Shown here: positions 56,003 to 63,372 of the stretch, piece after piece
Numbering within the stretch: the stretch's first letter is position 1
Layout: each line of letters begins with the position of its first letter
Assembly (NCBI GenBank): GCA_018819225.1
Contig: JAHJQN010000004.1
Coordinates: 287,302 to 351,301 of the forward strand
Reading direction: 5' to 3'
Length of the DNA stretch: 64,000 bases
From: Candidatus Micrarchaeota archaeon
GTDB lineage: Archaea > Micrarchaeota > Micrarchaeia > Norongarragalinales > SBBD01
The notes under the pieces: generated by a model
What the model was told of the DNA's origin: nothing
Databases searched by the model: none
The model's input: only the letters and a program-made list of their open reading frames with translations
Made by a program: the position numbers and the translations under genes

Positions 56003-57484
56003 CTAGCGAGCTAGAGCAGCGGCACCGTAGAACGCTTCATTCGCAATGAGAGCCCCATGCACGCCTAACTCTGCACCCGCGACTTGACGCGCCACGACTG
56101 GCTCCACATATCCGATCATTCCTTCCCGTAATGCCGCATTCGTCATGAATCGGCCTGGACGACCCATCATCACTTGCAGCGCCTGACGGCGAGCTCCGAT
56201 CAATGAAGATTCAGTTAAAATACGGTCCGCTTGACCGACGGCCATTGGAACTTCAGCCAGTTTTCCAACGCCTTTAAGTAATAAGATTTCTCCAACTAAG
56301 AATCCTGCGCTCGCCATTTGATCCGGGCAAGCCGTTCCTTCACAAACGCGGTAAGTGGAAACGAACGGTTCAGCCAGACCATGACCCAAATCCGAGGCAA
56401 ACCCACTTGGATCCGATACGATGGCTGCCGTTAATTCGAGTCTTGCCATACTTCCGCTCAATGAGCTCGAACCTAAACTGGCCAGATATCCAATTCCGTA
56501 TAGAGTTTGTAATCCTCTTTGTCCTAAGGCATGCAATTTCCCAGGCTGCGACCACATTTCGCCTTGTCGATCAAACCAGCGATCCACTGCACCTGGACCA
56601 TATGACTTCCAAGGCCGCGTGCCTTCATCCACTAACGCGGGATTAAACGTTACCGGGGGAAGCGACAAGTCGGGTTCCGATCGTTGCAATAAATTGACTT
56701 GTTCTTCTCCGTCCATTCCAGTAGGGTCGTTATATCGCAAGGGATTGTTGTTCCCGTACGAATAGGGTGTTGAAGTACCGTCAAACAACGGATCCACGCT
56801 TAGGAAGCGACCGTTTTTGGGATCGTAAAAGCGCGCGCCCATATAGTACAAACCGCTCTTCGAATCCAGTTCTTGACCCGTAAACCGCAATCGAGTCGTG
56901 CCCGAACTTCGCAGATTGTCTCCAAAAGGATAATAATCGTTGTAGCCCCGCATCAGTCCCGCTTCATCCGTTTGCGCCCGGATACTGGAAAGATAGTCGG
57001 TATGGATGAATCGAACCGCGGAAACTTCTCCGCCATATCGGCCGTCACTGCGAGCGACCAAGCGGCTTCCGGCATAATAATATTGATTATGTTTTGGATA
57101 AATGCCTCCGCCTCCTCCATGATCAATATACGCCGCTTCATAAGGCAGTATTCGATCGCACGTGCCGTCATCCGTGACCAACATCGTTGGATCTGGAGAC
57201 GGGGATGGTTCGGGAGTCGGCGTGGATTCCGAAACATTCGAAGCATTCAACGTCTGGTTCGCGCCCGTTTCATTGACCAGCGTATCGTTTACGAAAGTAT
57301 CGTTCAACGTGCCATTGGTTTCATTCACCCACGTGTCGTTTGATGAATTCGTGTCGTTTTTTAATTGGAAGAAATGGTCGGGATTTTCTTGAACGGGTTT
57401 TCCGAAGAGTGAAGCGGAATAGGCGAGCGGAACCAGTAAGGCCAACAAGCAGAACACGACCAATCCCAGAATTTTTGGCTGCAT
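56003..57484 (-). CDS. Signal-peptide protein with Rhs-associated core and C-terminal extension
   Basis: HTDYLSSIR, YYPFG, RFTGQELD..SGLYYMGARFYDP..GRFLSVDP, YSYGNNNPLRYNDPTG. Confidence 0.9.
   Translation of the reverse strand: MQPKILGLVVFCLLALLVPLAYSASLFGKPVQENPDHFFQLKNDTNSSNDTWVNETNGTLNDTFVNDTLVNETGANQTLNASNVSESTPTPEPSPSPDPTMLVTDDGTCDRILPYEAAYIDHGGGGGIYPKHNQYYYAGSRLVARSDGRYGGEVSAVRFIHTDYLSSIRAQTDEAGLMRGYNDYYPFGDNLRSSGTTRLRFTGQELDSKSGLYYMGARFYDPKNGRFLSVDPLFDGTSTPYSYGNNNPLRYNDPTGMDGEEQVNLLQRSEPDLSLPPVTFNPALVDEGTRPWKSYGPGAVDRWFDRQGEMWSQPGKLHALGQRGLQTLYGIGYLASLGSSSLSGSMARLELTAAIVSDPSGFASDLGHGLAEPFVSTYRVCEGTACPDQMASAGFLVGEILLLKGVGKLAEVPMAVGQADRILTESSLIGARRQALQVMMGRPGRFMTNAALREGMIGYVEPVVARQVAGAELGVHGALIANEAFYGAAALAR

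Positions 57485-63372: not shown

Follow-up and report, generated by a model that had tools for sequence, protein, structure and literature searches.

Across 64,000 nucleotides (nt) of Candidatus Micrarchaeota archaeon DNA, referred to here as the window (contig JAHJQN010000004.1 of assembly GCA_018819225.1, positions 287,302-351,301; all coordinates below are window positions unless a locus is named), one Rhs-type protein was found to be divided between two adjacent minus-strand genes in different frames. The first, gene A, encodes a YD-repeat barrel that lacks the C-terminal core, and the second, gene B, encodes that core together with a variable tail behind a putative export signal of its own. 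A gene with plug and payload is termed a "cartridge" below, and a YD-repeat gene without the plug a "shell". With a probability of roughly 0.6, the pair is a working two-subunit modular Rhs cocoon in which the plug and payload cartridge is supplied in trans, its export, glycosylation, assembly, cleavage and toxicity being what we infer from the two genes. That reading is built on direct observations of the gene structure, of a break conserved among relatives, of ends that complement each other, of intact motifs, of polymorphic tails and of cartridges outnumbering shells. The features of gene A and its surroundings are as follows, with lengths in amino acids (aa).

57496-63372, minus strand: gene A, Rhs/YD-repeat shell, 1,958 aa from the ATG at 63372 (open reading frame and translation)
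63398-63404, minus strand: TATA-like box TTTATAT, about 29 nt upstream of the gene A ATG
63304-63372, minus strand: putative shell signal peptide, 23 residues with a small-x-small end (translation; N-terminal design repeated in orthologue P0068)
63076-63243, minus strand: SpvB-like (TcB-type) N-terminal motif (Pfam PF03534, 23.7 bits; present in both orthologues)
58399-58557, minus strand: dockerin/EF-hand-like double calcium-loop insert (Pfam PF00404, 20.3 bits, slightly below the 22.9 cut-off)
57499-57570, minus strand: last YD hairpin and 12-residue C-terminal tail ending in Cys, the break point (orthologue alignment)

The longest frame of gene A runs from 57496 to 63447 (1983 aa), and the ATG at 63372 is its likely start, because a classical signal peptide follows, the N-terminus matches that of the closest orthologue and the TATA-like box lies about 29 nt upstream of it. 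Judged by what is generally known of archaeal promoters, this box suggests a leaderless or short-leader transcript that opens an A-B operon. The SpvB-like match scores 23.7, 22.8 and 26.2 bits in gene A and its two orthologues against a cut-off of 22, and is limited to the first ~55 positions of the profile; the N-terminal 1,100 residues of the shell matched no solved structure in a profile search of the PDB. RHS repeats (PF05593, E 2.4e-16; TIGR01643, E 1.4e-14) reach residue 1947 of the 1983-aa frame, and no Rhs core domain (TIGR03696) was matched in gene A by the Pfam and NCBIfam profile searches. The gene stops 12 residues past its final Y-x-Y-D-G hairpin with Cys as the last residue, which bears out the claim of an earlier note on this DNA that a YD-repeat gene of ~1960 aa ends where the core would normally follow. 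Among side features of the shell, the dockerin-like calcium loops lie in its exterior; a shell piece of a sister genome carries the same dockerin family with a stronger match than gene A, and orthologue P0070 has a weak Excalibur calcium-binding match.

Gene B is made up of the following elements.

56003-57484, minus strand: gene B, cartridge, 493 aa (open reading frame and translation; the database gene call P0003 begins at the same ATG)
57492-57497, minus strand: Shine-Dalgarno-like GAAGGT, overlapping the gene A TGA (57496-57498), 7 nt before the gene B ATG
57413-57484, minus strand: putative cartridge signal peptide, 24 residues, AYSA site (translation)
57080-57412, minus strand: linker with 11 sequons, a Pro/Thr stretch, one Cys and a Gly5 run (sequence statistics)
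56714-57079, minus strand: last barrel hairpin(s) and Rhs core (aspartyl autoprotease plug), ending in DPTGM (TIGR03696)
56006-56713, minus strand: payload tail, 236 aa, of no known family, with release by cleavage after DPTGM predicted

The ATG of gene B at 57484 lies 11 nt past the TGA of gene A, and a GTG at 57502, overlapping that TGA, is an alternative start. The position of the Shine-Dalgarno-like site over the gene A stop suggests translational coupling of the two genes, and together with the 11-nt gap and the TATA-like box before gene A it fits an operon. The protein would begin with a signal peptide in which a short basic n-region precedes a hydrophobic core of 17 residues and the AYSA site; next comes the linker that holds all 11 N-x-S/T sequons of gene B, where shuffled sequences average 2.6 and none of 2000 reach 11; the signal peptide and sequon-rich linker described in the earlier note were thus recovered. 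Beyond the linker the Rhs sequence resumes with hairpin and core up to DPTG, as had also been claimed, and the core matches TIGR03696 (Rhs_assc_core) with 79.2 bits (E 2.4e-22; cut-off 32.5 bits) ahead of the 236-residue tail. It could be aligned to the ends of Tse5, YenC2 and TccC3. In Rhs1 of P. laumondii the barrel extends to residue 1262, and the C-terminal plug (residues 1263-1357) is an aspartyl protease with D1338 as catalytic residue and cleavage after L1342; this plug is folded within the last barrel ring, and Rhs payloads are held unfolded in the cavity (PMC8636562). Residues 198-261 of gene B align with residues 1283-1346 of Rhs1 (7pq5), which pairs Asp253 with the catalytic D1338 and Met257 with L1342, the residue after which Rhs1 is cut. 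By this alignment the catalytic Asp and the DPTGM cleavage motif are intact in gene B.

The two ends of the break complement each other. The last hairpin of gene A aligns to about residue 1154 of the solved Rhs structure 7q97 and the core of gene B from residue 1229 onwards, and in the consensus of fused relatives only a short loop separates the two hairpins. In the pair studied here that loop is replaced by the Cys-ended tail of gene A, a stop codon, the signal peptide and a linker of about 110 residues. Gene B contributes about 40 barrel residues, the entire plug and the payload. On its own, gene A would make a barrel left open at the C-terminus, and the ends of A and B are, as judged from the alignments, complementary and contiguous.

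The break recurs in relatives. Three database proteins only match gene A over its full length, namely gene A itself, P0068 (58% identity, 1965 aa) and P0070 (45% identity, 1997 aa, from an NCBI metagenome-assembled genome (MAG) labelled Candidatus Micrarchaeota), and all three end in one alignment column with an invariant final Cys. On the contig of P0068 (L001), the shell is followed at a distance of 2 nt by the closest relative of gene B, again a separate gene laid out as signal peptide, sequon and Pro/Thr linker, Gly5 run, hairpin, core and an unrelated tail. Gene B is 47% identical to its closest cartridge, and this identity is lost within about 13 residues of DPTGM. The source genome holds a second shell-cartridge pair of the same design 160 kb away, where the paralogous shell stops at the matching hairpin. 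Altogether, all six core-less shells are cut at the matching hairpin and all six have a Cys as their last residue or no more than a few positions short of it, at the positions listed below.

Window, 57499-57534: shell C-terminus with Cys
L001, about 7050-7084: shell C-terminus with Cys
L002, about 10500-10535: shell C-terminus with Cys
L004, 2515-2560: shell C-terminus with Cys
L038: shell C-terminus with Cys
L006, about 1000-1054: shell C-terminus with Cys

The cartridges of the window's clade carry a Cys-x-Glu-Asp-x-Cys-Gly4 motif just before the hairpin, from which gene B keeps one Cys and the Gly run. A disulfide lock between the terminal Cys of the shell and this motif is possible but was not adopted, as several cartridges of the sister genus have no Cys before the core and the parity of the Cys residues is inconsistent.

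The Rhs core was found in 12 of 401 sampled genomes of the phylum, including the source genome and all six of its sampled family relatives. The 11 genomes of the source archaeon's family contain 22 above-cut-off core domains, spread over 10 of these genomes; 19 of the domains sit in frames of 300-750 aa and three in frames of 987-2163 aa, while other families of the class have the core in frames of 1711-2497 aa. Stand-alone genes made of a signal or anchor and a core, which the earlier note had held worth looking for, are therefore the dominant form in this archaeal family. The 13 family members that were aligned share one plan, in which a basic N-terminus and a hydrophobic helix are followed by 80-150 residues of linker rich in Pro/Thr or sequons, a single YD hairpin, the core with its DPxG, and 210-270 residues of tail; judging by its sequence, the N-terminal helix is a cleavable signal in some cartridges and probably a signal anchor in others. 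In a tree of 122 core domains the alignment of 116 columns is too short to resolve a single origin of stand-alone cartridges, and the only supported clade is that of the window (six rows, being five distinct cartridges with one present twice; support 95).

The tails that follow these cores are mutually unrelated across the family except for one pair, and a Pfam search of ten other cartridges returned no toxin family. One relative, the Micrarchaeota MAG G019, encodes four cartridges against two shells, one of which, of 3331 aa, has a cartridge on each side. These gene counts and the tails that become unrelated after DPxG fit the suggestion of the earlier note that core and payload form an exchangeable unit. 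As the cartridge is a separate gene, one shell could be combined with different payloads with no need for recombination.

Further subdivision, and the fused design, were met at other loci.

L046 (G173:C71:4400-11400), 3463-6837 and 193-3462, minus strand: two-gene shell of 1124 and 1089 aa, abutting, each with a putative signal peptide
L030 (G142:C7:297500-317499), 4349-6427, 6417-8504 and 8535-10949, plus strand: three-gene shell of 692, 695 and 804 aa
L030, 1331-2800, 2847-4280 and 11670-13223, minus strand: three cartridge genes flanking the shell
L029 (G132:C5:110000-128000), 8342-14503 and 5042-6658, minus strand: fused Rhs and orphan tip in a family member
L044 (JGI 3300037502, a bacterial-looking contig), 4890-9947, 10001-11041 and 11047-11313: split-like locus of three genes

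The three pieces of L030 carry, in order, DUF6531, RHS repeats, and RHS repeats with CBM and dockerin, each behind an N-terminal hydrophobic leader. It is difficult to account for shells divided into two or three leader-bearing genes except by assembly of the pieces once exported. At a little short of an even chance, DPANN-type archaea would build such cocoons extracellularly from two to four Sec-exported pieces with the payload loaded in trans, a stand-alone cartridge docking into an open shell made beforehand and the terminal Cys maybe locking the joint. As to L046 itself, which belongs to a sister genus, its first piece has the SpvB-like start, its second stops at the usual hairpin and has a Cys-rich tail, and a cartridge lies upstream. 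The fused Rhs of G132 (2053 aa) unites SpvB, FG-GAP, TcdB mid-N, RHS, core and Tox-REase-9, and split and fused designs co-exist in the family. At L044 the gene of a 1685-aa RHS protein ending in FN3-like repeats is followed by one whose 346-aa product combines a signal peptide and YD hairpin with a core and a Tox-ART-HYD1 domain, and a small DUF6881 gene comes third, so that the split-cartridge principle may also occur in bacteria and be wider than archaea.

On the two-subunit reading, A and B would be made from one transcript and each exported by Sec, with the linker of B becoming N-glycosylated. Outside the membrane, the payload would thread, unfolded and led by its free C-terminus, into the shell through the end left open; the topology permits this, since the payload comes after the plug in the chain and Rhs payloads are unfolded in the cavity (PMC8636562). 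The plug would then seat in the shell, the hairpin of B pairing with the last strand of A, and the core would cut after DPTGM while the payload stays enclosed. The target could be a host archaeon or competitors.

The principal rival, judged unlikely, holds that the cartridge acts alone as a membrane-tethered or secreted "mini-Rhs" in which the core is a self-cutting release module, the shell having a role of its own, for example as an adhesin. Many cartridges are indeed unlinked to shells: several have no shell nearby (L005, L008), the archaeal contig L042 has a cartridge with no shell within 10 kb, one family genome with a cartridge (G276, 84% complete) yielded no detectable RHS-repeat gene, and signal-peptide plus core proteins of 350-450 aa are present in other metagenomes. 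The rival leaves unexplained the YD hairpin that precedes the plug in every cartridge, which has no obvious use without a barrel, and it sits poorly with the Rhs1 plug lying inside the last barrel ring (PMC8636562), with the cut of six out of six shells at the matching hairpin and with the adjacency or coupling of shell and cartridge in the window and at L001, L004, G019:C9 and G120:C37. The cartridge of L042 (JGI 3300009127; gene 10001-11176) has 391 aa with a signal peptide, hairpin, core and an HExxH in its tail, and a 389-aa gene comes after it.

The cartridges found far from any shell, and the genome in which no RHS-repeat gene was found, also count against a two-subunit cocoon, and several further points weigh on the same side. 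The proposed association of A with B is drawn from genes and sequences, and the signal peptides were called by eye from sequence features and hydropathy rather than by a trained predictor. The tail of gene B has no recognisable toxin fold or family in the Pfam, NCBIfam, HMMER and PDB searches, and the one candidate immunity gene is weak. We know of no precedent for a YD cocoon assembled outside the cell from Sec-exported unfolded chains.

A second rival, very improbable, would make gene B a classical orphan tip, that is, a silent cassette for recombination into the main rhs gene. Displaced C-terminal tips are known at Rhs loci (Zhang et al. 2012, PMC3482391), and a true example exists within the family itself, in G132, where the tip repeats the last ~150 residues of the shell and has no signal peptide. 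Gene B resembles such tips in being a short gene of core and variable tail beside a large rhs gene; it differs from them, since orphan tips have no export signal and duplicate the end of the main gene (as at L029), in having its own ATG, Shine-Dalgarno-like site, signal peptide and long linker, and the adjacent gene A has no core to be replaced. The cartridge architecture is moreover conserved at 47% identity.

It is hardly credible that a single-chain Rhs was split by a mistake in sequencing or assembly or has recently decayed into a frameshifted pseudogene. The frames of A and B do abut with a phase that differs by one base, and the assembly of 1.37 Mb is a draft (8 contigs, about 90% complete). 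About 135 non-Rhs residues of signal peptide and linker nevertheless stand between the two hairpins, and the spacing and phase of the junction vary between loci, with gaps of 11 nt in the window, 2 nt at L001 and 15 nt at L004. The same break is seen in independent assemblies at 45-58% identity and in the paralogue, which argues against both an artefact and a fresh pseudogene. The contention of the earlier note that the split had evolved and was no simple frameshift is supported in this way, the shells at 58% and 45% identity and the paralogue stopping at the same hairpin and the L001 cartridge being separate; homologues that were all fused, or a decaying gene B, which it had named as grounds for abandoning the idea, were not what was found, there being split relatives and a separate relative of gene B that carries a signal peptide. 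Least probable of all is a programmed frameshift or stop read-through that yields one fused A-B chain, for which the stop/start overlap at the GTG at 57502, if used, could be cited, as a fusion would bury the signal peptide and glyco-linker in the barrel seam, the differing spacing and phase of the unconserved junction speak against programmed frameshifting, and other cartridges are unlinked or lie upstream of the shell.

In the solved Rhs and Tc cocoons that are known, the toxin is enclosed by one chain or by two chains made together in the cytoplasm. The closest known system to the A-B pair is TcB/TcC, the BC subcomplex of Tc toxins (e.g. TcdB2-TccC3, YenB-YenC2), in which likewise one YD cocoon is formed from two polypeptides and the second carries the core autoprotease and a hypervariable payload, a likeness drawn here at the gene level. 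Like TcB, gene A starts with an SpvB-type motif, and in Tc toxins a single B subunit can work with several different C subunits. Unlike TcC, which brings several hundred shell residues (the core begins at ~580 in YenC2 and at 556 in TccC2), gene B brings about 40 barrel residues. Both A and B have putative Sec signal peptides, and B a glycosylation-type linker, whereas Tc B and C subunits are not known to have a Sec signal peptide or such a linker. The TcB beta-propeller (TcdB_toxin_midN / FG-GAP) had no match up to E 1 in gene A or its two orthologues, unlike TcB and unlike the fused G132 relative, which has one. TcA (PF03538) was not found in the source genome by a search that also matched in no control genome. 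The host, again unlike that of Tc toxins, is an archaeon.

The pair also resembles the single-chain Sec-exported Rhs/WapA proteins and the class of signal-peptide-SpvB "TcdB/TcaC" proteins in its signal peptide, SpvB-type start, RHS shell, DPxG core and variable payload whose sequences part directly behind that motif (PMC3482391). It departs from single-chain Rhs/WapA in that shell and core are separate genes, each with an export signal, and in that the payload would be swapped via extra cartridge genes and not by tip recombination. With the Rhs effectors of the type VI secretion system (P. laumondii Rhs1, Tse5, RhsA) it shares the aspartyl protease plug, with catalytic Asp and cleavage position aligned; the mature particle of those effectors consists of several non-covalent chains with an unfolded payload in the cavity, a likeness proposed for A-B as well. 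Those effectors are one folded chain that is cut after synthesis, unlike A and B, which would be made separately, and no PAAR, VgrG or Eag context accompanies the A-B pair.

The tail of gene B had no Pfam or NCBIfam match, no PDB sequence match outside the core and no homologue in the 11 family genomes, and an exhaustive HMMER search of 1.84 billion representatives returned only the tail itself and a low-complexity repeat protein. In a language-model atlas no match of the tail reached 0.9; one of them, a MafB-type polymorphic toxin at 0.84, can serve as a lead only. The earlier note had described the tail as Gly/Ala-rich with hydrophobic helices; the first part stands, at 25% Gly+Ala, and the second is overstated, as the most hydrophobic 19-residue window reaches only 1.29 on the Kyte-Doolittle scale and was judged to be below the level of a membrane helix. 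The tail is a putative toxin. The gene that follows downstream is listed below.

55259-55942, minus strand: next gene downstream, 227 aa, basic, with no hydrophobic segment and its own TATA-like box

This 227-aa gene had no homologue in the family genomes or in a set of 5.8 billion proteins, and its candidacy as an immunity protein is weak. An orphan tail beside an orphan downstream gene would be compatible with a fast-evolving toxin-immunity pair.

Beside the Rhs pair, positions 52680-55217 encode an E2 (UQ_con) and a JAB/MPN protease as well as a 309-aa protein whose C-terminal Cys/His cluster looks RING-like, a ubiquitin-system-like set that stands out for a DPANN-type archaeon. In two relatives a ThiF-type E1 lies beside the Rhs genes (L001 9454-10218; L007 10-741), and the recurrence of such neighbours in three genomes probably reflects synteny rather than function. 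Elsewhere in the window, positions 37485-37542 gave a partial Rfam tRNA match (model positions 8-63, 37 bits) that was not called by ARAGORN and could represent a piece of a tRNA or a tRNA interrupted by an intron.

Overall, the A-B pair is a real variant of the Rhs/Tc cocoon, conserved among relatives and apparently undescribed, and its modular reading has good support at the gene level. A literature search on DPANN or Micrarchaeota with Rhs or YD repeats found nothing relevant. Polymorphic toxins have been described as generally absent from most archaeal lineages, with only methanoarchaea and haloarchaea named (Zhang et al. 2012, PMC3482391), and the present genes would add archaeal lineages to a toxin class rated as rare in archaea by that 2012 survey. 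Extracellular assembly from separately exported pieces, if true, would be a way of building YD cocoons not seen before, with cargo loaded in trans by a natural system. If the proposed assembly holds, a YD cocoon can be closed outside the cell around cargo supplied in trans, the diversity of polymorphic toxins would arise here by gene-level exchange of cartridges and not by tip recombination, and archaea with tiny genomes that are thought to live on other cells would carry a mix-and-match weapon or host-interaction device.

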